The notes beneath the pieces are model-generated. The model saw only the letters and a list, made by a program, of their open reading frames with translations, had not been told where the DNA came from and did no database searches. Source: Patescibacteria group bacterium (lineage in GTDB: Bacteria; Patescibacteriota; Patescibacteriia; GWA2-46-9). Taken from it: a stretch of 64,000 bases of DNA. The translations under genes were made by a program, and so were the position numbers. The stretch spans positions 6,159 to 70,158 of the forward strand of contig JBAYUF010000005.1 of the NCBI GenBank assembly GCA_041675205.1, in the 5' to 3' direction. Positions 5,869 to 21,692 of this stretch are shown here, piece by piece (position 1 is the stretch's first letter; each line of letters begins with the position of its first letter).

Positions 5869-5886
5869 GGTTGTTCGTCAGCGTTT

Positions 5887-7171: not shown

Positions 7172-8132
7172 TTCTCGGGTGGCGCTCGTTGTCGCGCTGG
7201 TGGTGCTTGCCGTGCTAGCGAATGCGTTGCTTTTCGTTGGCTCTTTTCCTGGTGTCCGTGTGTCTGCGGCTACAACAGCAACGTTACCAGTACAGCGAGA
7301 CGTATACCGACCGACTGTGCCGGGAGCGCTACTGTCCGAGGTAACAGCCATGAACGTCTATATGAGTAGTGAAGGGTCGTCACCCTTGCCGCTCATGAAA
7401 TATCATGCCGATGACCCGGTACCGTTGGCCAGTCTTACAAAGCTCATGACCGCGCTTATTGCCTTGACGTATAATCCGGCCTGGGACGAGTCGGTTACCA
7501 TTCTGGCAGAAGATAGGCGACCGGGTGCGCGGCAACGCTTGCATCCTGGTGACACGGTTACTGTGGCAGATCTTTGGAAGTTATTACTCATCGCCTCAGA
7601 CAATGATGCCGCTGCGGCGCTTGCACGAAGCTTGGCTGGGAGCGAGAGCGCGTTTGTTAATGCCATGAACGCTTTGGCGAACTCGTGGTCATTGTCAGCC
7701 GTTACGTTTGCTGATGCCAGTGGCCTGAGTGATGGGAATCGAGCATCAGCCCGAGACTTTGCGGTAATTGCTCGCAAGGCTTTTTCGGAAGAGCGCATCG
7801 TTACCGCAGCAAGTGTGACCGACAGCACAGTGTTTATCGGTGGTGAAGCTGAACGCATTTTTAATACCGATCAAGTACTGCAAGATAATGCAGAAACAGC
7901 CACCTACGGCTGGACGCTCACGGCGGGCAAAACAGGGCACACTGAGGAAGCTGGTTATAACATAGCGCTATTAGCTGGAAATGAAACAGGGGAAGCGGCG
8001 CTCATGGTTTTACTTGGCGGAAAAACAGCAACAGATCGTGCCGAGGACGTACTCCGTTTAGTACCCTGGGCACTTACCACGACAAAAAATTTGCCAACTG
8101 GTGAACGACACGATGAACGTCTGCTATACTAA
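7143..8132 (+). CDS. D-alanyl-D-alanine carboxypeptidase (serine-type, PBP5/6-like)
   Basis: Signal/TM N-terminus; SxxK (ASLTK), SxN (SDN) and KTG (KTGHT) motifs. Confidence 0.75.
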   Translation: MKYEPLSLSDSRVALVVALVVLAVLANALLFVGSFPGVRVSAATTATLPVQRDVYRPTVPGALLSEVTAMNVYMSSEGSSPLPLMKYHADDPVPLASLTKLMTALIALTYNPAWDESVTILAEDRRPGARQRLHPGDTVTVADLWKLLLIASDNDAAAALARSLAGSESAFVNAMNALANSWSLSAVTFADASGLSDGNRASARDFAVIARKAFSEERIVTAASVTDSTVFIGGEAERIFNTDQVLQDNAETATYGWTLTAGKTGHTEEAGYNIALLAGNETGEAALMVLLGGKTATDRAEDVLRLVPWALTTTKNLPTGERHDERLLY

Positions 8133-8137
8133 TTGCT

Positions 8138-8860
8138 ATGAAGATGCCGATAGTTGTCGCCAATTGGAAAATGTATTTGAACGTACCTGAAAGTGTTGCC
8201 TTGGCTCAGAAACTGGTGCGGGCACCGCGTCTGCCTGTTACGGTCGTCGTTTGCCCGAGCGCTATAAGTATCTCAGCCGTGGCTGATATTCTGCGGGGTA
8301 GCGCTACCAGCCTTGGTGCGCAGTTGGTTAACACAGCGGTACGCGGTGCGCATACGGGGGGTGTATCGGCGGCAGATTATGCTTCTCTTGGTGCCACCTA
8401 TGCCATTGTTGGCCATTCAGAGGTACGTCGACGAGAGGGAACTGATGTGCATGCTTTGCGTGAGCAGTGCCTAACAGCACTCGCCAATGGCTTGACGCCC
8501 ATACTATGCATTGGGGAGACGCTGGAGCAGCACAATGAAGCAAGCTCGATACTGCGTGAACAATATACACAAGTAGTTGGTTCAGGACTCCCTGGTTCTT
8601 TTTTGGTTGCGTATGAGCCACTATGGGCAATCAGCGCCACGTCCGGCGCGCATCCGCTGTTAATTGAAGACGTTGCCGAGTCTAGTGCACTGCTTCGGTC
8701 GTTTATTGATGACGCGGTGCCTGTTTTGTATGGCGGCAGCGTGGACCAAACAAATGCGGCAGGGTTCATCGGCGCACATGGTTTTGATGGTGTACTCGTT
8801 GGTGCGGCGAGTACCGAGGCGGTTTCATTTCAAAATATTATTGCTCAAGTAGCTCGTTAA
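8138..8860 (+). CDS. tpiA: triosephosphate isomerase
   Basis: ANWKM N-terminus; catalytic loop AYEPLWAIS/GT; about 240 aa. Confidence 0.9.
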   Translation: MKMPIVVANWKMYLNVPESVALAQKLVRAPRLPVTVVVCPSAISISAVADILRGSATSLGAQLVNTAVRGAHTGGVSAADYASLGATYAIVGHSEVRRREGTDVHALREQCLTALANGLTPILCIGETLEQHNEASSILREQYTQVVGSGLPGSFLVAYEPLWAISATSGAHPLLIEDVAESSALLRSFIDDAVPVLYGGSVDQTNAAGFIGAHGFDGVLVGAASTEAVSFQNIIAQVAR

Positions 8861-8862
8861 GT

Positions 8863-9774
8863 ATGCTGTACGACGTTTTACCCATCCTCGTTCTCTTCGG
8901 TGCTATTGTTGGTTTTGTGATAACGGTTGGCAGACGGTGGTCGGATATACGCTTAATGAAGATTGAACATCTTCCTGAAGTTATTACAGCTACGAAGAAG
9001 CGACAGTTATTGCTTCGTGGTTTGCAACGTCGTTTACGCGAGCGAACAGGGCACCTTTGGCAGCGCACTGCGGCGCTTCGCGCTGAAACGGGGGAACGTC
9101 TTGGTGACTTCTATGAACGGCTTCTCGAATTAGATCGCCGGTATCGACATGCGAATCCTTCATCCGCCGCAGATGTCTCAACGACCGATATTGCCTCGCT
9201 TTTAGCTGTTGCAAAGAACGCCGAACAGACAGGTAACAAAGAAGAAGCGGAACGCACGTACCTCGATATCATTACGCATGACCATCGCAACACGGAAGCC
9301 TACCGAGGTCTTGGCCGTATTTACTGGAACGCCGGAAACCGCGAAGAAGCTGCGCAGTCGTTCGAATATGCGCTGCGGCTTGATCCACGTGACGCCGAAA
9401 CGTATGCATTGCTCGCCGCAGTGAGCGTGGAGCTAGGTGCCTTGGCGCGAGGTTGTAGTGCCTATGAGCAAGCCGTCTCCTTTGAGCCCGATCATGTGCC
9501 GTATCGTATTGGTCTCGGTGACACGCTTGTCAGTATGGAAGACTTCCCAAGTGCCATTGCAACATTTGAAGCGGCGGTGGCGTTGGAGCCGTCAAATCCT
9601 CGTTGCCTTGACCGACTCATCGATGTTTGTATACTTGGGGGTAATAAGCGGCTTGCGACTAGCACTTTACGGCACTTAGCCACGGTTAATCCTGACAATA
9701 ATAAGCTTCAGGAGTTCGAGGATCGTATAAAAGCGATGCCTCGAAAACGCCGGACGACTGAGCCGTCGAGCTAG
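8863..9774 (+). CDS. TPR-repeat protein with N-terminal membrane anchor
   Basis: Hydrophobic N-terminus followed by repeated TPR-like helices (AYRGLGRIYWNAGNREEAAQSFEYALRLDP...). Confidence 0.6.
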   Translation: MLYDVLPILVLFGAIVGFVITVGRRWSDIRLMKIEHLPEVITATKKRQLLLRGLQRRLRERTGHLWQRTAALRAETGERLGDFYERLLELDRRYRHANPSSAADVSTTDIASLLAVAKNAEQTGNKEEAERTYLDIITHDHRNTEAYRGLGRIYWNAGNREEAAQSFEYALRLDPRDAETYALLAAVSVELGALARGCSAYEQAVSFEPDHVPYRIGLGDTLVSMEDFPSAIATFEAAVALEPSNPRCLDRLIDVCILGGNKRLATSTLRHLATVNPDNNKLQEFEDRIKAMPRKRRTTEPSS

Positions 9775-9804
9775 ACCAAACAAGCTGTTTTTTACGTCTT
9801 TGTA

Positions 9805-9880
9805 GGCCCACTTAGCTCAGTTGGTAGAGCATCTCCATGGTAAGGAGAAGGTCCGCAGTTCGAATCTGCGAGTGGGCTCC
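9805..9880 (+). tRNA. tRNA-Thr (anticodon GGU)
   Basis: Hand-folded cloverleaf: acceptor GGCCCAC/GTGGGCT, D-arm GCTCAGTTGGTAGAGC, anticodon stem TCTCC/GGAGA with loop ATGGTAA, T-arm GGTCCGCAGTTCGAATCTGCG. Confidence 0.8.
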
Positions 9881-9991
9881 ATTCGACTCGGTTTGCCTAT
9901 GGCAAACCTCGCTCATGGCAAGCCATCTATATTGAGTCGAATGTCCTGAGCGACTGTAAGGAGTCGAAGGGCGAGTGATAAGTTTTAGTCT

Positions 9992-10078
9992 GGGTGGTTA
10001 CCGAAGTAGTCAAACGGACCTGACTGTAAATCAGGTGGCCCTGTGCCTTCGAAGGTGCAAATCCTTCACCACCCACCA
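9992..10078 (+). tRNA. tRNA-Tyr (anticodon GUA), long variable arm, CCA encoded
   Basis: Acceptor GGGTGGT/ACCACCC, anticodon loop CTGTAAA, extended variable arm, T-loop TTCGAAG. Confidence 0.8.
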
Positions 10079-10214
10079 GCCTTCGCTCAAGCTTCGGCTG
10101 GCGTGCCAGCCATAGTTTCAACGACGGTTGGCGGCCAGACGATATAGTAAAGCGGCTGTTCGCCGTAGTTTTAACGAAGGAGAACAAATTGTCAGTTGCC
10201 ATAAGTAAATATAC

Positions 10215-10290
10215 GCCGCCTTAGCTCAGCTGGTAGAGCAACACTTTTGTAAAGTGAAGGTCCCCGGTTCGAGTCCGGGAGGCGGCTCCA
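10215..10290 (+). tRNA. tRNA-Thr (anticodon UGU), CCA encoded
   Basis: Acceptor GCCGCCT/AGGCGGC, anticodon loop TTTGTAA, T-arm CCCGGTTCGAGTCCGGG. Confidence 0.8.
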
Positions 10291-10389
10291 ATAGCGTACA
10301 TTTTGATTTATCAAAATGTTTGCAACGTCAGTAGTCCCGCCAGCGGGCGGGGCTCCAGTAGTGTATAAAACAGGATTAACTACTAAAAA

Positions 10390-11280
10390 ATGTTTCTTTT
10401 CTTTTTCAATCCGTTTTTGCTAGGGTACTTTATTTTACCCGCGTCATTGTTTGCTCTGGCGGTCGGTTTCTATAAATATCGTCAAAAGGAATTATCCGTC
10501 AATCAGAAAGCAAAAAAAACTGCCTTTGTTTCAGCAGTTCTGGTTTTTGTTGTGTACACTGCCTACACAATTTATCTGATTTCAATCTCGACTAATTCAA
10601 CCGCAATTTTGGGCGTAATAGAAATACCATTCTCTGGCATTCCGCTCGCATTATTTGCTTACGCAATTGAATGGTCCCTAGCATATTTGTTTTTTTCTAA
10701 AGTTACAAAGGAATCATATACCGGAGAAAATCATTCGCGACGGATAATCATTGCGGCTGTCGTAGTTGCACTCGTCGTAATTCTAGGATCGGTGGAAAGC
10801 TATAGAACCGCTCTTGCCATGAAAGTCAGCAATAGTACAAAGGCAGGGGAGATACAAAAAGTCTACGATTCTTTTTTTGTGAAGTACGATGATAAAATTC
10901 TGAGCCAAATTGCAAGTAATGAGTACACTCCTGTTGAGGTTTTAAACGAACTTGCCCACGATGATCGCGAACGTGTTCTTCACGAGGTTGCTCGTAATCC
11001 AGCAACGCCTCTCGAAGCGCTACGCTTTATGTATGAAAATCAGGGCAGCGAAAGATTTGGTGACAGATACGTAGCGTATGATCTCGCAGTTAATCCTAGT
11101 ACACCGCTCGACATATTGCTTGAACTTAGCAAGAGCGATGATGATGTGGTTCGAAGCAATAGCACATATAATCCCAATCTTCCCCTTGAAATTTTGTGTG
11201 AGCTAAGCAAAGAGCAAAAGGGCGTAGTGTCGTCGCAGGCCAAGTCAAATATCAAAGCCCGCGGGGTCGCCTGTCCTTAG
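10390..11280 (+). CDS. membrane protein with C-terminal leucine-rich-repeat-variant (LRV-like) repeats
   Basis: Four or five N-terminal TM helices, then three repeats of the NP(S/A)TPL(D/E)xLxxL...VR(S/E) type. AT-rich relative to the flanks. Confidence 0.55.
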   Translation: MFLFFFNPFLLGYFILPASLFALAVGFYKYRQKELSVNQKAKKTAFVSAVLVFVVYTAYTIYLISISTNSTAILGVIEIPFSGIPLALFAYAIEWSLAYLFFSKVTKESYTGENHSRRIIIAAVVVALVVILGSVESYRTALAMKVSNSTKAGEIQKVYDSFFVKYDDKILSQIASNEYTPVEVLNELAHDDRERVLHEVARNPATPLEALRFMYENQGSERFGDRYVAYDLAVNPSTPLDILLELSKSDDDVVRSNSTYNPNLPLEILCELSKEQKGVVSSQAKSNIKARGVACP

Positions 11281-11344
11281 TTGACAGTTACCCCATTTTC
11301 TATCACACTGTGTTGACTTACTAGTATCAAAACAATAGAACGAT

Positions 11345-11500
11345 ATGTCCCAGGATAACCTGATAAAATTGGAGTGCACGGTTTGCAAGCGTGTTAACTA
11401 CCATACTTTTAAGAATAAGAAGAAGATTAAGGAGCGTCTTGAGATCAAGAAGCACTGCGAATGGTGCAAGAAGCACACGTTGCATAAGGAAACGAAGTAA
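11345..11500 (+). CDS. rpmG: 50S ribosomal protein L33 (51 aa; absent from the ORF track because it is under 60 aa)
   Basis: Translation [51 protein letters not shown] shows the L33 CxxC...CxxC zinc ribbon and the [10 protein letters not shown]-terminus. Sits just upstream of tRNA-Trp as in many bacteria. Confidence 0.85.
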
Positions 11501-11620
11501 CTAGTCGTGGATGGCTTATGGCAAGTAGCTGTAAGTAGCATTCATTCCGGGAAAGAATTAAACTATCAGGGTGTTATGACAATCTAGCGTTGCCATTTGC
11601 CAATGGCCTTTGCTAACTAC

Positions 11621-11694
11621 GGGGGCGTAGTGAAGTGGCATCATGCGGGTCTCCAAAACCTAAGTCGTAGGTTCGATTCCTACCGCCCCTGCCA
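11621..11694 (+). tRNA. tRNA-Trp (anticodon CCA), CCA encoded
   Basis: Acceptor GGGGGCG/CGCCCCT, D-stem GTGA/TCAT, anticodon stem CGGGT/ACCTA with loop CTCCAAA, T-arm GTAGGTTCGATTCCTAC, discriminator G. Confidence 0.75.
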
Positions 11695-11695
11695 G

Positions 11696-11735
11696 AAAAA
11701 TCCGTCACCATTTGGTGTACGGATTTTTCTGTTAT
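11696..11735 (+). terminator. intrinsic terminator hairpin (AAAAATCCGT...ACGGATTTTT), A- and T-flanked
   Basis: Perfect 10-bp stem flanked by an A-run and a T-run. A second, near-identical copy lies at 14652-14690. Confidence 0.7.
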
Positions 11736-11860
11736 TGGAAGGCGGAGTCGAACCTGGGGAAGGGGTCGGGGAACGGGAGTTCCCCGTGGCGGAATTATTC
11801 AAACCGAGGGGTTTGAAAGAGTCGCGGAGCGACGATGGTTCTAGCGAAGCGGATTCTACC

Positions 11861-11882
11861 GCCCCTGCCAGTTTGAGCTAGC
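11861..11882 (+). repeat. direct repeat of the tRNA-Trp 3' end (GATTCTACCGCCCCTGCCAG), att-like
   Basis: Matches 20/21 nt of tRNA-Trp positions 11674-11695. A further partial copy (CATCTACCGCCCTTGCCA) lies at 16262-16280. Confidence 0.7.
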
Positions 11883-11996
11883 ACAAGAAGCATCGTTTCA
11901 AGAGAGTACACGTTAGGATCAATACCCAGGCGAAAGCCTGGGTATTGGCGTATTAGGGCGAAAGAATTGAATTTGCATATATGATATTATGTCCTT

Positions 11997-12755
11997 ATGC
12001 GCGATGATGAACAGCCGGTATGTCCCAACTGTGGTTGGCCACTCCACATAGGCCAGCATGGGCCCCATCCTGAAGATGCTCCGAGAGAACCAACTCATCC
12101 ATTGCCGGAGGATTTGGCTCATCGGTTTGTGAACGGCACTATTTTTAATGATGCTGAAGTAGTAGCTGAAGGAGAACATGGTGATATCTATCGAGGCTTT
12201 ATTCGGGAGGAGCCGAATATTGGTATTCAAGCGGCGAAACTTCGGATAGATTTTCAGAAATCTAGTTCTTCAAATGCTGACACTCCAAAACAGGTACGCT
12301 TTGAATACGTACAGCCGGATAAAGTTGATTCAGAAAGTGATGTATTAGTGGCAGAAATGCATATCGCTCCATGGGGTAAAAATAAATTTGTTTTACAGCA
12401 CCGTTACGTTCAACCTGAGTTTCAAGGTAAACTTGGTCTTGGGACTAAACTTTTGCAGCAGGTAGAAAGTTGGTTAGCGCAAGTGGCGAGTGAAAAGAAA
12501 GAGGATGTGATTCTCGAAGTAGATACAGGCCAGAAGGGAGTGATTTCTTGGGTCGAGAAAAATGGTTTTTCTGTTGATCCTGATCAAGTCAAAGAATTGC
12601 AGGAGGTTGTGGATCATCCTGACCGATATGCGCTCGAAGACGTTCCTGATGTTGACGGATTGACTAAACCCGAATTCATTTTTAGAAATGATACCCCGGG
12701 CAGAACCGTTATTGACGCAGTTCGTTTTACTTTTAGTAAGAAGATTTCTGGTTGA
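11997..12755 (+). CDS. GNAT-family acetyltransferase with N-terminal CxxC zinc-ribbon-like motif
   Basis: CPNCGWPLH N-terminus; GNAT motif A-like FQGKLGLGTKLLQQVE. Confidence 0.5.
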   Translation: MRDDEQPVCPNCGWPLHIGQHGPHPEDAPREPTHPLPEDLAHRFVNGTIFNDAEVVAEGEHGDIYRGFIREEPNIGIQAAKLRIDFQKSSSSNADTPKQVRFEYVQPDKVDSESDVLVAEMHIAPWGKNKFVLQHRYVQPEFQGKLGLGTKLLQQVESWLAQVASEKKEDVILEVDTGQKGVISWVEKNGFSVDPDQVKELQEVVDHPDRYALEDVPDVDGLTKPEFIFRNDTPGRTVIDAVRFTFSKKISG

Positions 12756-12765
12756 ACAGAGTCCG

Positions 12766-12856
12766 CTCGAGGTGCATTGTTTTGATCATTGAAACAAGGC
12801 CCCAAAAGCCTTACTGGTGTTGACCGATTGAGGTTCGATCTCGAGGTGGCCTGCCA
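12766..12856 (+). repeat. structured intergenic repeat, family A, copy 1 (CTCGAGGTG...GGTTCGATCTCGAGGTGGCCTGCCA)
   Basis: Aligned by eye with four other copies. Conserved ends and a central AAGGC/GCCTT hairpin; the 5' hairpin varies in sequence but keeps its structure. Confidence 0.75.
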
Positions 12857-13032
12857 AAAGAGTTCTGTCTGTGAAAGGCCTTTTTAATACAGTAATCATT
12901 GACAAGGGATGCCTTTTTCCATACAGTGCTGCTCGTCGTGGATGTAGAAGATTCGTAAGTTTCAATTCACAACTCAGGGCTTGGTCGGCTCTGACCCACA
13001 GAGAAGCCGAAGAAATTCGGCAAGGAGGAACC

Positions 13033-13614
13033 ATGACCGCAATCCGAAGAGTAGTTGATATGCTGGGGCTCAATTGCTTGCCGTTACTCGTCTCGTTCCG
13101 CAAGGCACATGACGATCGACGGCAGGGAGGTGCTCGCAAGCCGCGTCGCATCGCGCCTCGTGTGCTCATCCGCTGCGGATGCTGCAAGCAACGCGTCGAG
13201 GTGTGTGTTGATGAGCATCCGACGGGAGATCCTCATGTTGACATGCTCGAAATCAACGGCGTCTATGGCAGCATCGACCAGTGGCGACAGGTGCTGCTGC
13301 CACTCCTCGGTGTACCGATGCCGGACGCTGAGCGTCGCGAAGCTCGTCTCGCGCTCGTTCGCCGTCGTATGGTGAACGACGGCAGGATGAGGGAGGCGGG
13401 AGACTGCAGATCGTGTGGCGATCCGGCGGAAGAGCCTGAAGGCGAAGACGTTCCCGCCGGTCTCTGTTCGGAGTGCCAGGATATGCAGAAGAAGGGCTGG
13501 CTCAGCAACACGGAGCCCTCGCGACCACTGGTGCCACGCGCATCGGATCGGAGAGAGCCTCTTACCCGAAGTGGCCCGGCGTATTCGCTTTACGATCCAG
13601 CGCGTCAGGGCTGA
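13033..13614 (+). CDS. Cys-rich hypothetical protein in a high-GC cassette
   Basis: Roughly 62% GC against about 40% in neighbours. Strong SD (AAGGAGGAAccATG). Multiple CxxC pairs (CGCCKQ, CRSCG, CSECQ). The track ORF extends upstream to 12871. Confidence 0.5.
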   Translation: MTAIRRVVDMLGLNCLPLLVSFRKAHDDRRQGGARKPRRIAPRVLIRCGCCKQRVEVCVDEHPTGDPHVDMLEINGVYGSIDQWRQVLLPLLGVPMPDAERREARLALVRRRMVNDGRMREAGDCRSCGDPAEEPEGEDVPAGLCSECQDMQKKGWLSNTEPSRPLVPRASDRREPLTRSGPAYSLYDPARQG

Positions 13615-13626
13615 TCGAATGTGCGT

Positions 13627-13680
13627 GGGGCGGGTTCGGTTGGTTGCAACAAGCTTCCGACCGACCCGCCCTTCGTCCTT
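13627..13680 (+). repeat. GC-rich imperfect palindrome, family B copy 1 (GGGGCGGGTTCGGTTGG-TTGCAACAAGCTT-CCGACCGACCCGCCC)
   Basis: Long imperfect inverted repeat with a conserved loop. A second copy at 24810-24866 follows the other high-GC cassette. Confidence 0.65.
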
Positions 13681-13711
13681 TTCAAACATTTTTTTATTTG
13701 AAGTTACTGAG

Positions 13712-13803
13712 CTCGAGGTGCGGCGTTTCGTTCATCTAAAATAGACCCCAAAAGCCTTACTGGTGTTGACCGATTGGGGGTTCGGTCTCGAGGCGGCCTG
13801 CCA
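13712..13803 (+). repeat. structured intergenic repeat family A, copy 2
   Basis: Same ends (CTCGAGGTGC ... CTCGAGGCGGCCTGCCA); hairpin GACCG...CGGTC fully paired in this copy. Confidence 0.75.
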
Positions 13804-13848
13804 AAAGAGTTCTGCCCGAGGAGGGCGGGACTTTTTTGTTTTTATTTT
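13804..13848 (+). terminator. intrinsic terminator (AAAAGAGTTCTGCCCG-gagga-GGGCGGGACTTTTTT)
   Basis: GC-rich stem with G-U pairs, A-run upstream and T-run downstream. Related copies at 12857-12885 and 16281-16320. Confidence 0.65.
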
Positions 13849-13910
13849 ATTCAGATTCAATTTCTCTGTCTGATACCAGGTCTTTCGGCGAGATATGACA
13901 GTATCAGAAT

Positions 13911-14486
13911 CTATATAAAATCGGTTTTTTGAAAATGCTGCCAGTCTTTTTGTTGCCATGTTCCGCCCCAGTCCCATCCATATTTCTTAAAAAGCTTAAC
14001 CACATGGCCGTCCGCTACTATTGCTCCTGTCGCACCGGGGTCATATGTCGCCCCTGGAGGAAAGACTGTTCCATCAATCGCGACGTAAGGGTTTGTTGCC
14101 GGGTTGATATCTATAGCAAGGCCGTATGAGTGATTAGACGGCTTATTTGTGCCGTAGATCAAGCGGTAGTTAAATGCTGAAGTGTTATTCGCAGCCATGC
14201 TGTTCTCGTCAATCCAGTTGTAGGCGACAATCGGAAGCATTTTTTCAATTGGGAAGCGTATCTCATAAAGTTGCTTGAAAATCTCCAGTACTTCTTGTTG
14301 CACCTTTTTATTTATAACTAGTTGTCCTGTATGTGTTCTTTTGTCAAAAGAAATGTAGTCGATAGTCAAAAGAGCTTGGCTATGACGAACTTCGTCGGGC
14401 ATTTGTCCAGCCAAGGATTCTTCTATTGTCATTGCGCTATCAATAATTTTGCTCATGTTTGCTCTCAGCAAGGTTATAACTTGCAT
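13911..14486 (-). CDS. M15-family zinc D-Ala-D-Ala carboxypeptidase/peptidoglycan peptidase (VanY/endolysin-like)
   Basis: SNHSYGLAIDINP and DWQHF zinc-ligand motifs. Start uncertain (Met at 14486 or 14456); the track ORF runs on into repeat A3. Confidence 0.6.
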   Translation of the reverse strand: MQVITLLRANMSKIIDSAMTIEESLAGQMPDEVRHSQALLTIDYISFDKRTHTGQLVINKKVQQEVLEIFKQLYEIRFPIEKMLPIVAYNWIDENSMAANNTSAFNYRLIYGTNKPSNHSYGLAIDINPATNPYVAIDGTVFPPGATYDPGATGAIVADGHVVKLFKKYGWDWGGTWQQKDWQHFQKTDFI

Positions 14487-14560
14487 ATAAATATTATCAT
14501 AAATAGGAACTCGTGATCGGGCCGTGTCACTTTTGTCACTTTTCACTAAATCCGCAGGTG

Positions 14561-14651
14561 CTCGAGGTGTGTCGTTTTGATCATCGGAAAAAGGTTCCAA
14601 ACGCCTTACTGGTGTTGACCGATTCGGGTTCGGTCTCGAGGTGGCCTGCCA
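14561..14651 (+). repeat. structured intergenic repeat family A, copy 3
   Basis: CTCGAGGTGT...GGTCTCGAGGTGGCCTGCCA, followed directly by the AAAAATCCGT terminator copy. Confidence 0.75.
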
Positions 14652-14690
14652 GAAAAATCCGTCACCGTTTTGGTGGACGGATTTTTCTGT
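14652..14690 (+). terminator. intrinsic terminator, second copy of the AAAAATCCGTCACC...ACGGATTTTT hairpin
   Basis: Near-identical to 11696-11735. Confidence 0.65.
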
Positions 14691-14773
14691 TGTTGGGTGA
14701 AAGGAATCGAACTTGAGAAGGGGGTCGTAACTGCAAGAGGAGAAGAAAAATTAGATTATGATAGAATAAGGTT

Positions 14774-15844
14774 ATGAAAATTGCAGATATCAATAAGTAT
14801 AGTTGGATAAAAAATTGGGGTGGAAACTGGAGTTTCCTGACGTGTTTTTACTTTGCCAATTACTATACAGGTGAAATGTGGAAGCAGATGGGTAAGGGTA
14901 TAAAAAAAGCCGTCATCATTTCGAATAATGGATATGGTTTTTGTTATTTCGATCCTAGTGATCGAGAATTATATGGAAAATACATAGGACTAAAAATAGG
15001 TAAGAATAAAGCGGCAGCTTTGAAATTTAGTAATGAACTAAAAAATCAAGCCGACACCTTGATTGAATATACTCACAAGTTAAGGAAGATGAAGACCGTT
15101 TCCTCAGTAGAGTATTATGATTTTCTGAGAAAATTTCTAGCATATTCTGGCCCGCACATGAGCATTCGGCCTACAGTTGATTATCTGCCAGAAAAACAGG
15201 TGAGACTGGTTCTGCCAATTTTCGAAAAAACTAGATTGTACGTAGAGGATGTTTATTTTGCGACAGAAGTGTTTATGCGTCATTGGGCCGAACAATTATC
15301 TGAACGAATGCGAGTCAATCCAAAATTCATACTCTCTTGCACGCCGTCCGAAATTAAGAATTATTGGCTTCATCAAAAGCTACCACCAACAAAGATTTTA
15401 AAAGCGCGATTTGTATCAAGCGGTATTATTTTTGATCGATTAGAAAACAAGGTTTTTGTTGGCCGCACCGTGGAAAGAATTGAAAAACTTCTTCAAGGCA
15501 GGCCGGACAAAAAAGAAATTAAGGGCCAAACAGCCTACGGAGGATTGGTTAAAGGTAACGCAAGAATCATTTTTAATCCTACGGTTCATAGCGCGCGAGT
15601 TTTTCAGAAGGGCGATATATTAATTACTGGAATGACAAGGCCAGAATTTTTACCTTTGATGCGAAAAGCTGGTGCAGTTGTTACAGATGCTGGAGGTATT
15701 TTAAGTCACGCTGCAATTACAGCCCGTGAAATGAAAATACCGACCGTCATAGGCACTACTGTTGCGACCAAAATTTTCAAAGATGGTGATATGGTTGAAG
15801 TTGATGCCACCCACGGAGTAGTAAGAATACTAAAATCACAGTAG
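14774..15844 (+). CDS. PEP-utilizing-enzyme mobile (phosphohistidine swivel) domain protein with uncharacterized N-terminal domain
   Basis: C-terminal GDILITGMTRPEFLPLMRKAGAVVTDAGGILSHAAITAREMKIPTVIG matches the PEP-utilizer His domain (catalytic His in SHAAI). About 37% GC. Confidence 0.6.
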   Translation: MKIADINKYSWIKNWGGNWSFLTCFYFANYYTGEMWKQMGKGIKKAVIISNNGYGFCYFDPSDRELYGKYIGLKIGKNKAAALKFSNELKNQADTLIEYTHKLRKMKTVSSVEYYDFLRKFLAYSGPHMSIRPTVDYLPEKQVRLVLPIFEKTRLYVEDVYFATEVFMRHWAEQLSERMRVNPKFILSCTPSEIKNYWLHQKLPPTKILKARFVSSGIIFDRLENKVFVGRTVERIEKLLQGRPDKKEIKGQTAYGGLVKGNARIIFNPTVHSARVFQKGDILITGMTRPEFLPLMRKAGAVVTDAGGILSHAAITAREMKIPTVIGTTVATKIFKDGDMVEVDATHGVVRILKSQ

Positions 15845-15935
15845 CTCGAGGTGCATCATTTTTGCCATCAAAATAAGGCCCCAAAAAGCCTCACTGGTGT
15901 TGATTGATTGGGGTTCGATCTCGAGGTGGCCTGCC
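15845..15935 (+). repeat. structured intergenic repeat family A, copy 4
   Basis: Begins immediately after the TAG stop at 15842-15844. Hairpin 3 carries compensatory changes (GATTG/CGATC). Confidence 0.75.
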
Positions 15936-16420
15936 GTAGAAGGAGGAGTGTCCGAATGGCTGTTCGTCTTTTCTGTTATATGAGTTGTCTAGACAGGTGT
16001 GTGTGCCTTCACTATACTACTTACTATATGGATGAATCACTTATCATACAAAAGCTGGTTTCCTTGGATGAAAAGATTAGTGGTATTGCGACTCAAGACA
16101 GCCTGATAAAACTTTCTGATGACATCACGCAGGCACTTGATGACCAGCTTGTTATTTTGCAAAGATTGGATTAAGAGAGGCTTTTCACTATGGAACGAAT
16201 AAAGAGAATTGAAGCGGATGTTGAAGAATTAAAATTACAACTGAAAGTGGCTTAAGAGCTTCGACTTCATCTACCGCCCTTGCCAAAAGAGTTCTGCCCG
16301 TCGGGGCGGGACTCTTTTTACGTGAGAGAATATTGAAAAAGAGGGTATTTTTTATTGTAGAAAGATAGTACAGCGAGAATCAGAGGTATGGTAAACTGAT
16401 TTTGCTGACTAAATGACTCT

Positions 16421-16918
16421 ATGAGAACTAGAAAAGAATTAGAGAGGTATGTTACTTCAGTCGGAAAGGATATTAAGGATTGTAGAATAGCTGTCGGTTC
16501 ACTCATTTTTGACAAGGAAAATAAAGTCATACTACTTGAACGTGGAGATAGTTCACGCGATAGTGCTGGTAAGTTTGAAGGTGTAGGCGGGGGTGTTGAC
16601 GCCGCCGAAGAAAATTTGCACGAAGCGCTACAACGAGAGATACATGAGGAAATCGGTGAAGTTCAGGTTGATATAAAAGAGTTACTCACCGTAATGATTC
16701 TACCAGGCTCGACGGGCGGTACGTGGGTTGTTCCAATTTATTTATGTAGATTAAAAAGCGGGGAGCCAATAGTTATGGAGCCTGATAAGATAGTTAAAAT
16801 ACATCATTTCAAGCTGGGGGACATACCCTACAATAAGCTGAGCGCGTATCAGAAAAGTACGATGGATGCTTATCGTGAGAAGTACGGCCAAGAAGTATTT
16901 GACGTTCTTTCGAGTTGA
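16421..16918 (+). CDS. NUDIX hydrolase
   Basis: Nudix box GGGVDAAEENLHEALQREIHEEIGE. Confidence 0.7.
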   Translation: MRTRKELERYVTSVGKDIKDCRIAVGSLIFDKENKVILLERGDSSRDSAGKFEGVGGGVDAAEENLHEALQREIHEEIGEVQVDIKELLTVMILPGSTGGTWVVPIYLCRLKSGEPIVMEPDKIVKIHHFKLGDIPYNKLSAYQKSTMDAYREKYGQEVFDVLSS

Positions 16919-16939
16919 CTTGCAGAAGGGATTATCTGT

Positions 16940-18424
16940 TTGGACTCACTACGTAAGCGAAATATGAAGTTTGATAATTTTGAAATTTACGAAAGAATTT
17001 ATAGTAGCCATTGGTTTCTGACTTCCTACAATGGAATCGGATTTATTTTTGATTTCCCAAAAATCGGCGGTGGCAATTTTCTAAAGAAAGTCATTTATGT
17101 GATGGAAAATCAGATGTGTCGCTATATATTTAATCATAAGGAGTTTGAGCTGGCTGCCAACTATACTGCCGATAAATTAATCAATAATAACAAATGGAGA
17201 AAAGAAGTTTACGAAAAAATTGATTATTTTACAAAACAGTATTTTGATGCAGGAGAAAATTTAAGAGATTCAAATTTATCTTTGCTCTCTAACAAAGAGC
17301 TAATTAAACGCATTCGACGAATAATTGTTTTTCAGCATTACCATCAAGTCTACAGTGTTTTGGCCAATGGAGTAGTTTTAGATGGCCGCAATCATATGTC
17401 GAATAAAATTCGAGATGAATTACGAAATAATTTAAACTTCCCTCCGAAGTTTGAGAATTATTGGAGCACATTAACTCAAATTACGAGGATGAGTCTTCGG
17501 CAGAAAAAAGATTATGAAATTTCTCTTTTAGCAAAAAAGGTTGGAATACTAACTCAGAAACAAATTGAATCAAAATTAAAAAAGCTGCATAAAGAGTATT
17601 GTTGGCTCGACTATAATAATATGGGACCGGCAACGTCGTTTGATGCGTTTCGACAGCAACTTAAAATGGCAAAGCGGAGCGATAAGGACTTGAATGTACC
17701 GAAGCGTTTGGCAGTTTTGAAGAAAAAACAAAGACAATTGATGTCTACATTGAAATTTAACCGAAGGTCTAGATTTTTGATTGCATTAGCCCAACAGGTG
17801 ATTTGGCAGAAAGGGTATCGAAAGGATGTTCAGTATCATGGATTTTATTGCTATGAGCCCTTGTTGCAAGAGCTCGTAAGAAGAAAAAAAGTTTCTGATT
17901 GGCAAACATTGAGTTTCCTATTCCCTTGGGAACTTGAGGGTTATATAAAATCAAATAAACCGACCACTGCTGAATTGGAACAAAGGCGCAAGCTTTCAGT
18001 CTTTATGGTGACAAGAGCGGGACATTCAATCATGGTAGGAAAAAAAGCAAAGATGACTGTAAAAAAATTTGGATCACTTGAAAATTTTACAAGTGTAACC
18101 GAAGTAAGGGGTCAAGTTGCGTATACAGGATTAGTTCGCGGTAAGGTTAAAATCATTCAAACTCCGTCAGACATGGTCAAAATGAACAAAGGGGATGTTC
18201 TCATGTCCCAGGCAACCAGTCCTGATTTACTGCCCGCAATGAAAAAAGCTGGTGCAATTGTTACGAATACCGGTGGTTTAATTTGCCATGCTGCAATAAC
18301 TTCTCGCGAATTAAAGATTCCTTGTGTAGTTGGCACAGCAAAAGCAACCTTAGTCTTTAAAGACGGAGATTTGGTAGAGGTTGATGCAACTAGCGGAGTC
18401 GTAAAAATAGTAAAATCAGAATAG
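16940..18424 (+). CDS. PEP-utilizing-enzyme mobile-domain protein, paralog 2, with larger uncharacterized N-terminal region
   Basis: C-terminal GDVLMSQATSPDLLPAMKKAGAIVTNTGGLICHAAITSRELKIPCVVG is homologous to the C-terminus of 14774-15844. AT-rich. Confidence 0.6.
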   Translation: MDSLRKRNMKFDNFEIYERIYSSHWFLTSYNGIGFIFDFPKIGGGNFLKKVIYVMENQMCRYIFNHKEFELAANYTADKLINNNKWRKEVYEKIDYFTKQYFDAGENLRDSNLSLLSNKELIKRIRRIIVFQHYHQVYSVLANGVVLDGRNHMSNKIRDELRNNLNFPPKFENYWSTLTQITRMSLRQKKDYEISLLAKKVGILTQKQIESKLKKLHKEYCWLDYNNMGPATSFDAFRQQLKMAKRSDKDLNVPKRLAVLKKKQRQLMSTLKFNRRSRFLIALAQQVIWQKGYRKDVQYHGFYCYEPLLQELVRRKKVSDWQTLSFLFPWELEGYIKSNKPTTAELEQRRKLSVFMVTRAGHSIMVGKKAKMTVKKFGSLENFTSVTEVRGQVAYTGLVRGKVKIIQTPSDMVKMNKGDVLMSQATSPDLLPAMKKAGAIVTNTGGLICHAAITSRELKIPCVVGTAKATLVFKDGDLVEVDATSGVVKIVKSE

Positions 18425-18514
18425 CTCGAGGTGCGTCGTTTTCGTCTTCGAAACAAGGCTCCAAACGCCTTACTGGTGTTGACCGACCGGGGTTCGATCT
18501 CGAGGTGGCCCGCA
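18425..18514 (+). repeat. structured intergenic repeat family A, copy 5
   Basis: Starts right after the TAG stop. Its 3' end is degenerate (GGCCCGCA instead of GGCCTGCCA). A terminator hairpin CTGCC-ttaaac-GGCAG-TTTTTT follows at 18523-18551. Confidence 0.7.
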
Positions 18515-18598
18515 GCAACAAATCTGCCTTAAACGGCAGGTTTTTTATTACTCAAAACGACAGGCATCGTGAAGTTAGAACTGTGATAGAATGTATGT

Positions 18599-18934
18599 AT
18601 GACCTTTTTACAAAAAACTATATTTGTTCTGATTATCCTGCTTATCCCCATAGCCTTTTTGCTAGGAGGTTTTCTTGGCAATTTGAAATATGCAGCACCT
18701 TTGGCACACTGTAATCCTGCCTCCGTGCCATATGAAAACGCTGAAACCCAAGAAGTATCTCTACCGATGAGTACTATGTTCAGAAACTATTATGGACATA
18801 CGTATAATTTTAGTGGTCATATTGTGCCTAAAGGGGTCAGTCTAAAAGATTATTATTCAACATTTAACTCTGGTGGTTTTCATTATCTTAAAACTACCAA
18901 TGGAGAGGTAGTCGCTTGTGGATTTTATAAGTAG
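18599..18934 (+). CDS. small membrane-anchored hypothetical protein
   Basis: Hydrophobic N-terminus. ATG lies 7 nt after an extended -10 element (TGATAGAAT, 18584-18592), implying a leaderless transcript. Confidence 0.45.
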   Translation: MTFLQKTIFVLIILLIPIAFLLGGFLGNLKYAAPLAHCNPASVPYENAETQEVSLPMSTMFRNYYGHTYNFSGHIVPKGVSLKDYYSTFNSGGFHYLKTTNGEVVACGFYK

Positions 18935-19015
18935 CGAGCGGGGACTAATCGCAAATCAGGAACATAAATAAACTCACACTGCCGCTGAATAATGGTTTTG
19001 ACGTCCTCCACGATG

Positions 19016-19099
19016 CCCTGCCATCAGAAACGACCCGTAAACTCGGGTCGTTTCTGGTAGAGGGGAGTGGGACATAGAACTGTGATAGAATATTTAAGT
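19016..19099 (+). promoter_or_regulatory. terminator-promoter junction module (CCCTGCCA / 13-bp hairpin / extended -10 TGATAGAAT)
   Basis: Perfect hairpin CAGAAACGACCCG-taaact-CGGGTCGTTTCTG, then GGACATAGAACTGTGATAGAAT. ATG of the next gene is 9 nt after the -10. Confidence 0.6.
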
Positions 19100-20278
19100 A
19101 TGCAAAAAATTACTACAAGCGAGTACGCGGATTTGACACAGCACGAACTAGAGGCGCTGAAACATGAGTTTAACCTTGCGGATGCACATACTCATCAATC
19201 GCAATCGCTCACCCAGCGGAAGATTATAAGTCGACTACCAAGCCTCTGGTACCAATCGGAAAGAGCCACACAGGTCGAAATGGAGAATAAATTTATTCGT
19301 TCTTTTTTTCAGTATCATCAACAGCCTACGGCATTGAAAACACCTTCATTGTTAGTCTATGCAGCCTCCATTGGGATGGTAATTGTCTCTAACTATTTCA
19401 AGAAAAAACAACTGTCCGTTCAGCTGATAACCCCTTGTTTTGATAATCTTCCTGACCTACTAAGAAATCTTGGAGTACCAATTAAGCCGTTGCGAGAAGA
19501 GTTATTAGAGGACGCTAGTGCTATTTATCAGAATCTAGAGCGACATTGTAAAAGTGACGTTATTTTTCTTGTCTCTCCCAATAATCCGACGGGGTTTGAA
19601 CTTACAGGTAACGTAGGCACTGACTATAAGGCACGATTTAAGGAACTGATTCGCTTTGCCAAGAATCATAATAAAATCCTTGCGTTCGACTTTTGTTTTG
19701 CTTCGTTTATAGTGCAGGATGCAAAAGTACCTACGTTTGATGTCTACAGCCTGCTAGAAAAATCGGGTGTGAGCTATATTGCCATTGAGGACTCTGGGAA
19801 AACGTGGCCGCTGCAAGATGCCAAGGTGGCACTTATTAAAGCGAGCAAGAATCTTTATCCTGAGCTCCACAATATTCATACGGCGTATTTGCTCAACGTT
19901 TCACCATTTATTTTGAATCTTGTAAGCGAGTATTGTGAAGATTCGATAAAAGACAAGGGTTCTAGTATCAAGAACCTGCTTGAACGAAATCGCAAGATTG
20001 TTAAAAAGGAATTAAGCGGAGACCTGCTTGAGTTTATGGAACCTGGCACACTTGTTAGTGTCGCGTGGTTCAAGATTAGAAATTCGAAGATTATGGCAAC
20101 GACCTTGCAGAAGCATCTCTATCGCAAGGCAAGGGTGTACGTATTGCCAGGAACATACTTTTTTTGGGATAAGCCGACCAGGGGAGAAAGGTATATACGA
20201 ATTGCCTTAGCGCGTGACACGATTATGTTCAAAAAAGCAATCGCAAAAGTTAAGAAGGCTCTCTATGCATACAGGTAA
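19100..20278 (+). CDS. PLP-dependent aminotransferase (class I/II fold)
   Basis: SPNNPTG motif and a candidate PLP-lysine in EDSGKTW. Start moved to the ATG at 19100 because the track start at 19067 lies inside the promoter element. Confidence 0.6.
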   Translation: MQKITTSEYADLTQHELEALKHEFNLADAHTHQSQSLTQRKIISRLPSLWYQSERATQVEMENKFIRSFFQYHQQPTALKTPSLLVYAASIGMVIVSNYFKKKQLSVQLITPCFDNLPDLLRNLGVPIKPLREELLEDASAIYQNLERHCKSDVIFLVSPNNPTGFELTGNVGTDYKARFKELIRFAKNHNKILAFDFCFASFIVQDAKVPTFDVYSLLEKSGVSYIAIEDSGKTWPLQDAKVALIKASKNLYPELHNIHTAYLLNVSPFILNLVSEYCEDSIKDKGSSIKNLLERNRKIVKKELSGDLLEFMEPGTLVSVAWFKIRNSKIMATTLQKHLYRKARVYVLPGTYFFWDKPTRGERYIRIALARDTIMFKKAIAKVKKALYAYR

Positions 20279-21023: not shown

Positions 21024-21024
21024 T

Positions 21025-21510: not shown

Positions 21511-21613
21511 CTCCGTGTATACATATCAGGACGGTAACTAGATAAAGCAAAGTTCTGCAGTTGAAGTTCTAGTTTGATAGCTACCCAATTCTAGGTTCAA
21601 ACTTGTGTACTAG

Positions 21614-21692
21614 CCCTGCCATCAGAAATGACCTATAAACTCGGGTCGTTTTTGATAGAGCGAAACAGGACATGGAACTGTGATAATATAAC
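21614..21692 (+). promoter_or_regulatory. terminator-promoter junction module, copy 2 (degenerate hairpin; extended -10 TGATAATAT)
   Basis: GCCCTGCCATCAGAAATGACC...GGACATGGAACTGTGATAATAT. ATG at 21696 is about 7 nt after the -10. Confidence 0.55.

Follow-up and report, generated by a model that had tools for sequence, protein, structure and literature searches.

Two sister gene cassettes in an array of small units behind a tRNA-Trp gene of a Patescibacteria genome

Integrase-less CIMEs accrete at tRNA 3' ends in streptococci. The tycheposons of Prochlorococcus are tRNA-adjacent islands in which partial tRNA copies have been left scattered by successive integrations (bioRxiv 10.1101/2020.12.28.424599), and for the hyperplastic regions of T4-type phages, gene swapping at PeSL motifs has been proposed (PMC2839356, PMC4122927). 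Here, we analyzed a 64,000-nucleotide stretch of DNA (the window) from a MAG of the Patescibacteria (CPR), a host that the preliminary description of this DNA had guessed correctly in general terms, and compared its tRNA-anchored island with these systems.

As in the tRNA islands (tycheposons and CIMEs), the island starts at a tRNA 3' end and has partial tRNA copies scattered inside it, the accessory cargo varies between related genomes, and there are units without an integrase of their own. It differs from them in that its units are of about 1 kb, mostly with one gene, and stand about 12 in a row; no unit has an integrase or a replication module, a 7- to 9-nt core alone is common to all junctions, each unit has its own hairpin and promoter, and the host belongs to the Patescibacteria. 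The resemblance to chromosomal integron arrays (attC/VCR) lies in the dense, co-oriented, mostly single-gene units, in the conserved repeats that come right after stop codons, and in the combination of hypervariable cargo with inter-cassette repeats that are conserved between genomes. Unlike those arrays, this one is without IntI, attI, Pc, and attC R and L boxes; its core is a tRNA 3' end, and its cassettes bring their own promoters and putative terminators.

The PeSL regions of T4-type phages likewise place terminator-hairpin and promoter modules around unrelated ORFs in a hyperplastic setting (PMC2839356, PMC4122927); however, the array is cellular, lying in a CPR chromosome, is anchored at a tRNA gene, and has junctions that share a short tRNA-derived core rather than a whole module. 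Phage morons are similar to cassettes 1 and 2 described below, and to a module at 60720-62090, in being self-contained, promoter-ORF-terminator-like units of host-atypical composition, but the present modules have no prophage context and did not resemble any known phage or plasmid. The 60720-62090 segment is a third self-contained transcription module, with a GC content and translation signals unlike those usual in the host.

The array behind tRNA-Trp

The anchor and the array are as follows.

11621-11694, + strand: tRNA-Trp (CCA), anchor of the array (ARAGORN, Rfam, sequence)
11695-25690, + strand: array of about 12 small units of 0.18 to 2.6 kb (repeat families, Pfam, junction table, HSP termini)

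The array, of about 14 kb, begins at 11695 and abuts the tRNA-Trp 3' end at 11694; the anchor is the same in L004, another Patescibacteria MAG. Its units, delimited by means of the repeat families D1 to D6, D12, D18, and D19 and of HSP termini, are co-oriented (11 on the + strand) and mostly contain a single gene between conserved repeats. Each right end is (G)CC(C)TGCCA or a close variant, and each left end is a hairpin, which in most units is followed by a promoter. The cargo comprises GNAT, ORF1, an M15 peptidase (on the - strand), two PEP-utilizers proteins, NUDIX, aminotransferase-DHDPS-DUF6190, SDR-HD, a decayed NUDIX, ORF2, and an S51 peptidase.

Gene order is identical in three assemblies, and the array is therefore not an assembly artefact. 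Look-ups of exact proteins for population variants returned identical gene orders only; neither excised or circular units nor polymorphism was seen. Recombinase and transposase domains were absent from the approximately 75 window ORFs that were scanned and from the genes called past the window's 3' end on the roughly 71-kb contig.

The two sister cassettes

Cassettes 1 and 2 are modular units in which unrelated ORFs are set in one backbone of promoter, leader, SD site, and 3' hairpin. Nearly all of the backbone features that had been listed in the preliminary description were recovered in place, and the coordinates are given here.

12857-13803, + strand: cassette 1, complete unit from core to core (junction table, HSP termini)
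12899-12927, + strand: sigma-70-type promoter of cassette 1, TTGACA (12899-12904), 17 nt, TACAGT (12922-12927)
12928-13032, + strand: 5' leader of cassette 1 (fold, alignment, sequence)
13033-13614, + strand: ORF1, 193 aa, 61.5% GC (family and profile searches)
13627-13671, + strand: GC-rich hairpin of cassette 1, about 15 pairs, loop TTGCAACAAGCTT, then TTCGTCCTTTTC (fold, alignment)
24122-24915, + strand: cassette 2, left boundary approximate, right boundary the core at 24909-24915
24161-24189, + strand: promoter of cassette 2, TTGACA (24161-24166), 17 nt, TAAGGT (24184-24189)
24190-24259, + strand: 5' leader of cassette 2 (fold, alignment, sequence)
24260-24778, + strand: ORF2, 172 aa, 52.8% GC, orphan (homologue search, composition)
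24811-24856, + strand: GC-rich hairpin of cassette 2, homologous to 13627-13671 (fold, pair counts)
26222-26286, + strand: degenerate third copy of the GC-rich hairpin (68% identity; fold lost, z +0.2)

The left boundary of cassette 2 is approximate because its upstream core has decayed. Promoter and leader had been described as homologous between the two cassettes; this holds for the upstream flanks (12862-12958 versus 24123-24221, 77% over 100 nt, E=2e-14; family D6) but not for the middle of the leader, which has diverged, contains a 35-nt indel, and is not alignable, nor for the SD-proximal part, whose similarity on its own is not significant (E=0.48). The downstream flanks (13627-13720 versus 24812-24907) are 77% identical over 97 nt (E=6e-14; family D3), in agreement with the earlier view that the same palindrome follows both ORFs. 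The shared flanks are longer than had been described and run out to the tRNA-Trp 3'-end copies at 12850-12856, 13797-13803, and 24909-24915, and the pattern of unrelated cargo inside conserved flanks recurs in all other units of the array.

The leader of cassette 1 starts with the conserved GCTGCTCGTCGTGGATG (12928-12944), which includes an ATG-TAG start-stop, and has a non-conserved hairpin; its SD site, AAGGAGGAA, lies at 13022-13030, ahead of the ATG at 13033. That of cassette 2 starts with the conserved GTTGCTCGTCGTGGATG (24190-24206), followed by a 5-codon mini-ORF, and has the SD site ACGGAGGAA at 24249-24257 and the ATG at 24260. A riboswitch-like fold, raised as an idea for these leaders, was not borne out: no Rfam family matched at the gathering score or at E<=10, and the folds were no better than those of shuffled sequences (z -0.9 and +0.7). 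SD sites of the GGAGG type occur in only 4 of the 63 genes, as expected from the earlier remark that strong SD sites are otherwise absent locally. The usual arrangement in this host is an extended -10 element, 6 nt ahead of the start codon, without an SD site, and most operon-first genes look leaderless. With most host genes leaderless or devoid of an SD site, the cassette backbone is atypical for this genome.

A GC content of about 60% had been ascribed to both ORFs; it applies to ORF1 (61.5%) but not to ORF2 (52.8%), compared with 36-46% for neighbouring genes and 46.6% for the window. That the encoded proteins are unrelated was upheld (BLASTP E=1.9), and no residual DNA similarity was found either. 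The N-terminal ~90 aa of ORF1 belong to a small-protein family with at least 264 cluster representatives; among the 20 members that were looked up, the named ones were all Patescibacteria or Paceibacterota MAG proteins, and at four of five distinct loci, the ORF1-family gene was GC-richer than its own contig. The C terminus gave a weak match to a DksA/TraR-like CxxC...CxxC zinc finger, and if this match is real, ORF1 might bind RNA polymerase. In one pipeline, an antisense ORF was called in place of ORF1. The ORF2 homologue search was empty, with no family, phage, or plasmid match; its codon-position composition is what a coding sequence would show (purine at position 1, 0.65), and a single-sequence structure model was uninformative (pLDDT 39). 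The high-GC, actinobacterial donor that had been suggested finds no backing in these results: the named members of the ORF1 family are from Patescibacteria, ORF1 had no actinobacterial link and no match in 50,697 phage or 72,556 plasmid records, and ORF2 is without a homologue.

The GC-rich hairpins start 13 nt (cassette 1) and 33 nt (cassette 2) past the stop codons and are very stable, at -41.7 kcal/mol (z -6.3) and -47.1 kcal/mol (z -5.5), respectively; compensatory changes are present at four pairs among the homologous hairpins. The U content 3' of the stems is imperfect (UUCGUCCUUUUC, 7 U in 12; CUCGUCCUGUCC, 4 U in 12), and a consensus terminator scan flagged neither hairpin (the loop is of 13 nt). 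We read the element as a putative factor-independent terminator or 3'-end stabiliser. Across metagenomes and viral sequences, the hairpin pattern (GGGGCGG..GCAAC..CCCGCCCYTCGTC) gave only seven matches, on unrelated contigs of 64-72% GC, none of them viral; these are ordinary GC-rich hairpins and are uninformative on the donor.

Parts of the backbone were also found in L001, a Patescibacteria-like contig. There, a homologous promoter and SD site accompany an ORF1 homologue with a short hairpin variant (tail, UCGUCUUUUU), and the long hairpin (86% identity) sits after a different gene, a sigma-70-like ORF; the hairpins after these two genes have z values of -3.7 and -4.7. Given these homologues, a local duplication devoid of matches elsewhere does not suffice to explain the shared elements.

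Junction cores and the assortment of unit ends

The last 7 nt of tRNA-Trp, CCTGCCA (11688-11694), are the core that is reiterated at the junctions. Between 11600 and 25000, there are eight exact copies, all intergenic and on the + strand, and four near-exact variants; we estimate that about 0.8 exact copies would be expected (one strand, 13.4 kb). Counting exact copies and variants together, the core recurs about 12 times from 11694 to 24915, with a hairpin after each copy. The elements located at the junctions are as follows.

11738-11870, + strand: X element, with an inverted tRNA-Trp 3'-end copy at its start and a direct copy at its end
12765-12856, + strand: D1 copy a, right end of the GNAT unit, whose core (12850-12856) is the left boundary of cassette 1
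13711-13803, + strand: D1 copy b, right end of cassette 1, core 13797-13803
14560-14651, + strand: D1 copy c, core 14645-14651 (repeat families [D19], junction table, HSP termini)
15845-15936, + strand: D1 copy d, variant core CCTGCCG (junction table)
16279-16285, + strand: core variant CTTGCCA, with the tRNA-Trp-like CTACCGCC just before it (junction table)
18424-18515, + strand: D1 copy e, degenerate core GGCCCGCAG (sequence comparison)
19017-19105, + strand: core and c-type left end (D2, junction table)
21615-21703, + strand: core and c-type left end, second copy (junction table)
23474-23552, + strand: core variant CCCGCCA and d-type left end (GTTTGAGCTAGCAC..., hairpin) (D12, D18)
24896-24997, + strand: short right end TTCTCAAGGTG-GCCTGCCA and c-type left end of the S51 peptidase unit (D2)

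The right ends are diverged versions of the tRNA-Trp 3' end that span a T-loop-like GGTTC through CCTGCCA, and the GGTTC is kept 25-30 nt upstream of the core in the D1, G, and H types. The hairpin of the next unit starts immediately past the CCA, so that each junction mimics a tRNA gene with a terminator of its own. In the first elements past tRNA-Trp, the tRNA 3' end is reproduced exactly, with CTACCGCCCCTGCCA repeated exactly at 11856-11870; the interior of the X element contains two conserved hairpins. D1 begins 0-10 nt past the stop codon in three units. Copy b is composed of CTCGAGGTG, a 75-nt segment, and then CTCGAGGCG-GCCTGCCA; past copy c, the terminator found downstream of tRNA-Trp and the 5' part of X occur for a second time; and copy e, together with the adjacent hairpin and promoter, is 84% identical over 128 nt to L004. 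The short right end at 24896 is D1 minus its 75-nt segment. Among the left ends, the c-type (19017-19105) consists of the hairpin GAAACGACCCG/CGGGTCGTTTC and then the extended -10 promoter TGTGATAGAAT, and the d-type at 23474-23552 matches 11864-11947 at 90-93% identity. The c-, d-, and f-type left ends are all composite modules in which a hairpin precedes a TGTGATAnnAT (TGnTAnnAT) promoter.

Right-end and left-end types assort independently at the core, both inside the array and relative to L004. In seven junction pairs, the sequence on the left side of the core is similar and that on the right side is not (for example, 12856/14651, left.92 and right.26; 19023/L004_4795, left.87 and right.05); in seven others, the reverse holds (11694/14651, left.11 and right.92; 19023/24915, left.13 and right.87). 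At least 16 of the 35 HSPs between junction regions begin or end inside the core. Some breakpoints lie off the core, namely at the 75-nt segment of D1, which is flanked by the 9-nt direct repeat CTCGAGGTG, and in L004, which has only the 3' half of D1.

A single scan of the genome collection with the D1 pattern yielded one additional genome, L004, and the same pattern had no match in viral contigs; the comparison set consists of two retrieved genomes with junction elements. Past its tRNA-Trp, L004 has junction elements of the same types, at 84-95% identity, whereas the tRNA region itself is 80% identical. Only one partial protein match to the genes of the window was found; the two loci differ almost completely in the genes that they carry. 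The core of the X element has a counterpart at L001 2296-2360 (81% identity), the ends of which mimic tRNA-Asn rather than tRNA-Trp. No junction elements were found in more distant CPR genomes that carry homologues of the PEP-utilizers cargo. The idea that D1, D2, and X are functional tRNAs or tmRNA-like genes was rejected: ARAGORN and Rfam (E<=10) returned no match, and their weak folds were no better than those of shuffled sequences (z -1.0, -0.4, and +0.3).

Origin of the array and competing explanations

Cassettes 1 and 2 are probably, although by no means certainly, sister expression units in a tRNA-Trp-anchored, integron-like accretion array built by site-specific recombination. Each comprises a -35/-10 promoter, a 70- to 105-nt leader with a canonical SD site, a single GC-rich ORF, and a very stable hairpin predicted to terminate transcription. 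The array may have been assembled, and may still be rearranged, through site-specific recombination at the core from the tRNA-Trp 3' end, with excised or circular units carrying an att site that would mimic tRNA-Trp plus terminator, and with a recombinase acting in trans from a gene off this contig. The source of the ORF1 and ORF2 backbone presumably lies within the CPR, in a lineage or mobile element that uses SD sites, rather than in the Actinobacteria. We tentatively go further and regard as possible, rather than probable, a hitherto undescribed, integron-like system of gene capture in some Patescibacteria, in which the att site would be a tRNA-Trp mimic (CCTGCCA and a variable hairpin), the recombinase would act in trans, and the ORF1 and ORF2 units would be CPR imports. 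The units that are inserted, excised, and rearranged would be about 1 kb long and would hold one gene or a few along with a terminator and a promoter of their own; the enzyme could be either a tyrosine recombinase or one of the HUH type that recognises hairpins.

The model of the preliminary description, in which the units are integron-type cassettes and the GC-rich palindrome is attC, is very improbable as an account of the array, and membership of both cassettes in this class is refuted. The mostly single-gene units in one orientation, the repeated structured elements between them, and the imperfect palindrome just 3' of each of ORF1 and ORF2 are what it had in its favour. However, no IntI or other tyrosine recombinase was found among the window ORFs and the called genes past the 3' end, the units have their own promoters, and neither attC core motif is present in 13600-13720 or 24780-24920; RYYYAAC...GTTRRRY pairs 50-140 nt apart numbered zero on both strands of 11695-27400, compared with 3.8 +/- 3.2 in shuffled sequences. 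The palindrome is intact in only 2 of the ~12 units and lies inside the units, away from the similarity breakpoints, the distance from hairpin to downstream core being 126 nt in cassette 1 and 53 nt in cassette 2. Similarity breaks at CCTGCCA, outside the palindrome; the array is integron-like, and yet the palindrome is not its recombination site. Of the earlier cassette idea, the units' own expression signals and the cassette-like array stand, and the palindrome as recombination signal falls. It is also improbable that a single cassette was simply doubled within the island, its ORF being later replaced or diverged and its flanks having no function in mobility. The two copies are 11 kb apart in one island with flank identity of ~77-82%, which would suit such an event, but the ORFs retain no similarity in protein or DNA, homologues of the backbone stand beside other genes in L001, and conserved flanks with unrelated cargo are a feature of every other unit.

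Shuffling of the kind proposed for T4 PeSL elements, by general or microhomology recombination between conserved intergenic modules and without a dedicated recombinase, is rather unlikely but more credible. It would accommodate the composite hairpin and promoter modules at several left ends (c-, d-, and f-types), the ~100 nt of backbone on each side of the cassettes, which is enough for homologous exchange, the breakpoints that lie off the core, and the lack of a recombinase encoded nearby. Many junction pairs, however, share just the 7- to 9-nt core, which is too short for RecA-type exchange, and such shuffling predicts neither that the core is the 3' end of the anchoring tRNA nor that the first elements carry exact copies of it. 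Finally, the tRNA-like right ends could have their role in the RNA, as signals for 3'-end processing or stabilisation that imitate a tRNA 3' end, and owe their conservation to it, the GC-rich hairpin being an extra mRNA stabiliser; we consider this doubtful, and it is compatible with recombination. The spacing of GGTTC ~25-30 nt ahead of ...GCCA with a hairpin next, as in a tRNA gene, and the stronger conservation of the elements than of the tRNA region between genomes point in this direction. Against it, D1 and the other right ends lack an acceptor-stem partner, and the folding and Rfam results given above for these elements are negative.

Gain and exchange of accessory genes in the tiny genomes of the CPR/Patescibacteria are poorly understood. 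A largely leaderless, SD-poor genome apparently tolerates imported genes whose expression depends on a classical -35/-10 promoter, an extended leader, and a strong SD site, and these SD-led units, together with the miscall of ORF1, bear on gene calling in CPR genomes. If site-specific recombination at the tRNA-Trp core is the correct explanation, a tRNA-anchored hotspot where self-expressing units of 1 kb are re-assorted at a core of 7 nt would provide genome flexibility by compact means, and the integron and tRNA-island paradigms would be extended to a new phylum at a much finer grain. The signature of a tRNA 3'-end core followed by a hairpin would then be searchable in thousands of MAGs and could be correlated with candidate recombinases.

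The tRNA-Trp locus and host expression signals

The two high-GC loci are sister expression units in a tRNA-Trp-anchored, integron-resembling array. The array lies on a ~71.5-kb contig, of which the window is part, in the MAG "Patescibacteria group bacterium," and an identical gene order was found in three independent assemblies. The genes of the accessory stretch, which extends downstream from tRNA-Trp to ~25.7 kb, are of low GC content (36-46%).

Main features of the locus
1-11,700: core genes secY, adk, map, recO, class II aminoacyl-tRNA synthetase, scpAB and tpiA, four tRNAs, and a 51-aa ORF read as rpmG (L33)
11621-11694 (+): tRNA-Trp, upstream edge of the accessory stretch
12857-13803: cassette 1, core to core, with ORF1 (13033-13614, +)
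~24122-24915: cassette 2, with ORF2 (24260-24778, +); its right boundary is the core at 24909-24915 and its upstream core is decayed

An extended -10 box (TGnTAnnAT) ends 6 nt 5' of the start codon in at least 9 of the 63 genes in the window, against 0.45 expected by chance (for example, 14752-14776, 18577-18601, 26313-26337, 30803-30827 and 47167-47191). Such spacing implies leaderless mRNAs, and the genome appears to be largely leaderless. A GGAGG-type Shine-Dalgarno (SD) site precedes only 4 of the 63 genes; the strong SD sites of the two cassettes are thus as exceptional locally as the preliminary description had held, and their -35/-10 promoters and long leaders are likewise atypical for this genome. 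Some mechanically called start codons, such as GTG 19067 and GTG 24974, are probably wrong, and ATGs 8 nt past -10 boxes are better candidates.

Outside the array, a third leadered, SD-using module of high GC content (55-59%) was observed at 60716-62090. It has the promoter ATTGACT-17-TAATTT, the sequence GGAG(G)AA(A)CCATG before each of its three ORFs (60853-61056, 67 aa; 61097-61684, cytidine-deaminase-like; 61711-62013, 100 aa) and a hairpin terminator at its end. The matches of the second ORF to NCBIfam cytidine deaminases were all subthreshold, and PADLOC returned no match for the module. TACG-rich short repeats (TACGnnTTACGCTATACG...) lie near the window end (63314-63399), and similar repeats occur between rpoD and tRNA-Asn (2010-2060) in L001, a second Patescibacteria-like contig. 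Nine tandem PEP-utilizers (phosphohistidine swivel) paralogues were seen in JAHZTO010005939.1 (L019; GCA_020049755.1), positions 1-14054; this family, which is widespread in CPR and DPANN, is the source of two cargo genes in the array.

The two high-GC units

The motifs listed for both cassettes were found in place. The upstream flanks (12862-12958 and 24123-24221; repeat family D6) share 77% identity over ~100 nt (E=2e-14), and the downstream flanks (13627-13720 and 24812-24907; repeat family D3) share 77% identity over ~97 nt (E=6e-14), while the encoded proteins are, as described, unrelated (E=1.9). The reported GC content of ~60% fits ORF1 (61.5%; GC3, 0.63) but not ORF2, which at 52.8% is still ~10 points over its neighbours.

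The leaders are conserved in three parts only: the promoter, the SD region and, between them, the first ~17 transcribed nt (G[C/T]TGCTCGTCGTGGATG). Their middle parts differ by a 35-nt indel. At the 5' end of each leader, the conserved GTCGTGGATG precedes a very short reading frame, which is a start-stop (ATG TAG) for cassette 1 (12934-12946) and a mini-ORF of 5 codons for cassette 2 (24196-24220). A similar motif with a mini-ORF also lies just 3' of the putative rpmG (11503-11530); the mini-ORFs are 4 to 5 codons long. The suggestion of a riboswitch-like leader was rejected: the folds were no better than those of shuffled sequence (z scores of -0.9 and +0.7), and an Rfam scan of the leaders gave no match even at E<=10.

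ORF1 has two close homologues, and a profile search recovered 264 cluster representatives of its family, 75 of them at E<=1e-10. These are mostly 80-130 aa long, align with the N-terminal ~90 residues of ORF1 and have the consensus PLRVTxRK...CGCC...PTGDPHxDTLEINGVxGTIDQWRQVLLPLLG. Among the 20 representatives looked up, all organism-named entries are Patescibacteria or Paceibacterota MAGs, and family genes exceed the GC content of their contigs in four of five distinct loci. The high GC content of ORF1 thus seems to be a family trait and not evidence of recent import from Actinobacteria, and the proposed actinobacterial donor is not supported. The C terminus of ORF1 gave a weak DksA-like zinc-finger match (PHROG; E=4.6e-4); no structural neighbours of its AlphaFold model (pLDDT, 72) were found. 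An antisense ORF of 201 aa (13084-13689, -) overlaps ORF1 and was annotated in its place by the gene caller of one assembly; conservation among homologues supports the plus-strand ORF as the probable gene. ORF2 has a codon-position composition typical of coding sequence; a homologue search found none, and its single-sequence structure model was uninformative. Neither ORF matched phage or plasmid records.

Both copies of the GC-rich palindrome are hairpins of ~15 pairs (-41.7 and -47.1 kcal/mol; z scores of -6.3 and -5.5), and a third, decayed copy lies at 26222-26286. In L001, a sigma-70-like gene is followed by the long form (86% identity over 56 nt), and an ORF1 homologue by a short form. 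Compensatory changes keep the stems, and the stem is followed by YTCGTC and a T-rich run, an imperfect U-tract; a consensus terminator scan did not flag the hairpin. We read it as a terminator or 3'-end stabilizer that is part of its unit. It had been likened to an attC site but does not resemble one: there were no RYYYAAC/GTTRRRY core pairs (3.8 expected), intact copies occur in just two units, and its position is off the similarity breakpoints between units.

Junctions and re-assortment in the array

Almost all intergenic regions between 11.7 and 25 kb fall in a repeat family.

Intergenic repeat families in the array
12765, 13711, 14560, 15845, 18424: D1, five copies of ~95 nt
19009, 21607, 24901: D2
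11864, 23474: D12/D18
Within 11.7-25 kb: D5 and D19, further families

Alignment of the junctions showed that every right end terminates in (G)CC(C)TGCCA, the last 7 to 9 nt of tRNA-Trp. The exact core, CCTGCCA, occurs in eight plus-strand copies in 13.4 kb, all intergenic (~0.8 expected, by our own rough estimate), with four near-exact variants. Several right ends retain a T-loop-like GGTTC 25-30 nt upstream of the core, and the tRNA-Trp sequence CTACCGCCCCTGCCA has an exact second copy at 11856-11870. Immediately 3' of each core, a new sequence type opens with a hairpin, followed in most units by a promoter; six such left-end types (a to f) were distinguished.

Right and left ends are freely combined. 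The left-end types seen after D1 are b, b, a, e and f. Three different right ends precede type c and two different ones precede type d; type a occurs both after D1 and after tRNA-Trp itself. Seven pairs of junctions are similar on the left side of the core only and seven on the right side only, and, of the 35 HSPs that link junction regions, at least 16 have an endpoint inside the core. In L004, a related MAG (JBAZXG010000001.1), an island likewise lies 3' of tRNA-Trp; its elements are of the same types (84-95% identity) but differently combined (for example, a G-type right end followed by a b-like hairpin). At the protein level, the two islands have a single, partial match in common.

The right end of cassette 2, TTCTCAAGGTG-GCCTGCCA (24896-24915), equals D1 minus a 75-nt segment. 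D1 is thus composite (13711-13803 and other copies), and in it this segment lies between 9-nt direct repeats, CTCGAGGTG, that contain the palindrome CTCGAG; L004 has the 3' half of D1 only, directly after a stop codon.

The small X element (11738-11870), 3' of tRNA-Trp, has copies of the tRNA 3' end at both of its termini, inverted at the start and direct at the end, and contains two conserved hairpins. A homologue of its core (81%) lies 3' of tRNA-Asn in L001 (2276-2405 and 2440-2650), with ends that mimic tRNA-Asn. X may be an att remnant or a MITE-like element whose ends adapt to the tRNA that it targets. In a decayed unit without a clear 3' core (23604-24101), a truncated leaderless ORF was seen together with NUDIX fragments of 73 and 68 aa in two frames. 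The 720 nt at 25616-26334, which may be the distal edge of the array, hold the degenerate hairpin copy and no convincing plus-strand gene; a possible 101-aa membrane ORF (25823-26128, -) and a bidirectional-looking hairpin (25664-25686) were also noted.

Possible origin of the array

The 7-nt core at all junctions, its identity to the 3'-terminal sequence of the tRNA that anchors the array and the independent assortment of the flanks suggest that the array was built by site-specific recombination at the tRNA 3' end. Each junction (right end, CCA, hairpin) imitates the tRNA gene with its own terminator, the expected look of an att site on a circularized unit. The closest documented pattern is that of the Prochlorococcus tycheposons, which likewise form tRNA-adjacent islands with scattered partial tRNAs from successive integrations. 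The array also resembles integron arrays in its fine grain (~1 kb and one gene per unit) and in repeats that start immediately 3' of stop codons, and T4 PeSLs in its hairpin-plus-promoter modules.

Four points count against a simple core-recombination model: some breakpoints fall inside D1, away from the core; no recombinase gene was found in the window or among the called genes past its 3' end; no circles or variants of the array were observed; and the junction elements were retrieved from two genomes only. Exchange of the PeSL kind, by homology or microhomology, is therefore a serious rival to core recombination, especially where ORF1 and ORF2 were swapped inside a shared backbone of ~100 nt per side.

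A literature search on Patescibacteria and integron cassettes returned resistome surveys only, and we know of no tRNA-anchored accretion island of this kind described in Patescibacteria. The original cassette proposal was right in spirit, although its palindrome, leader and donor components were not supported, and we rate the array as a variant of the tRNA-anchored accretion island.
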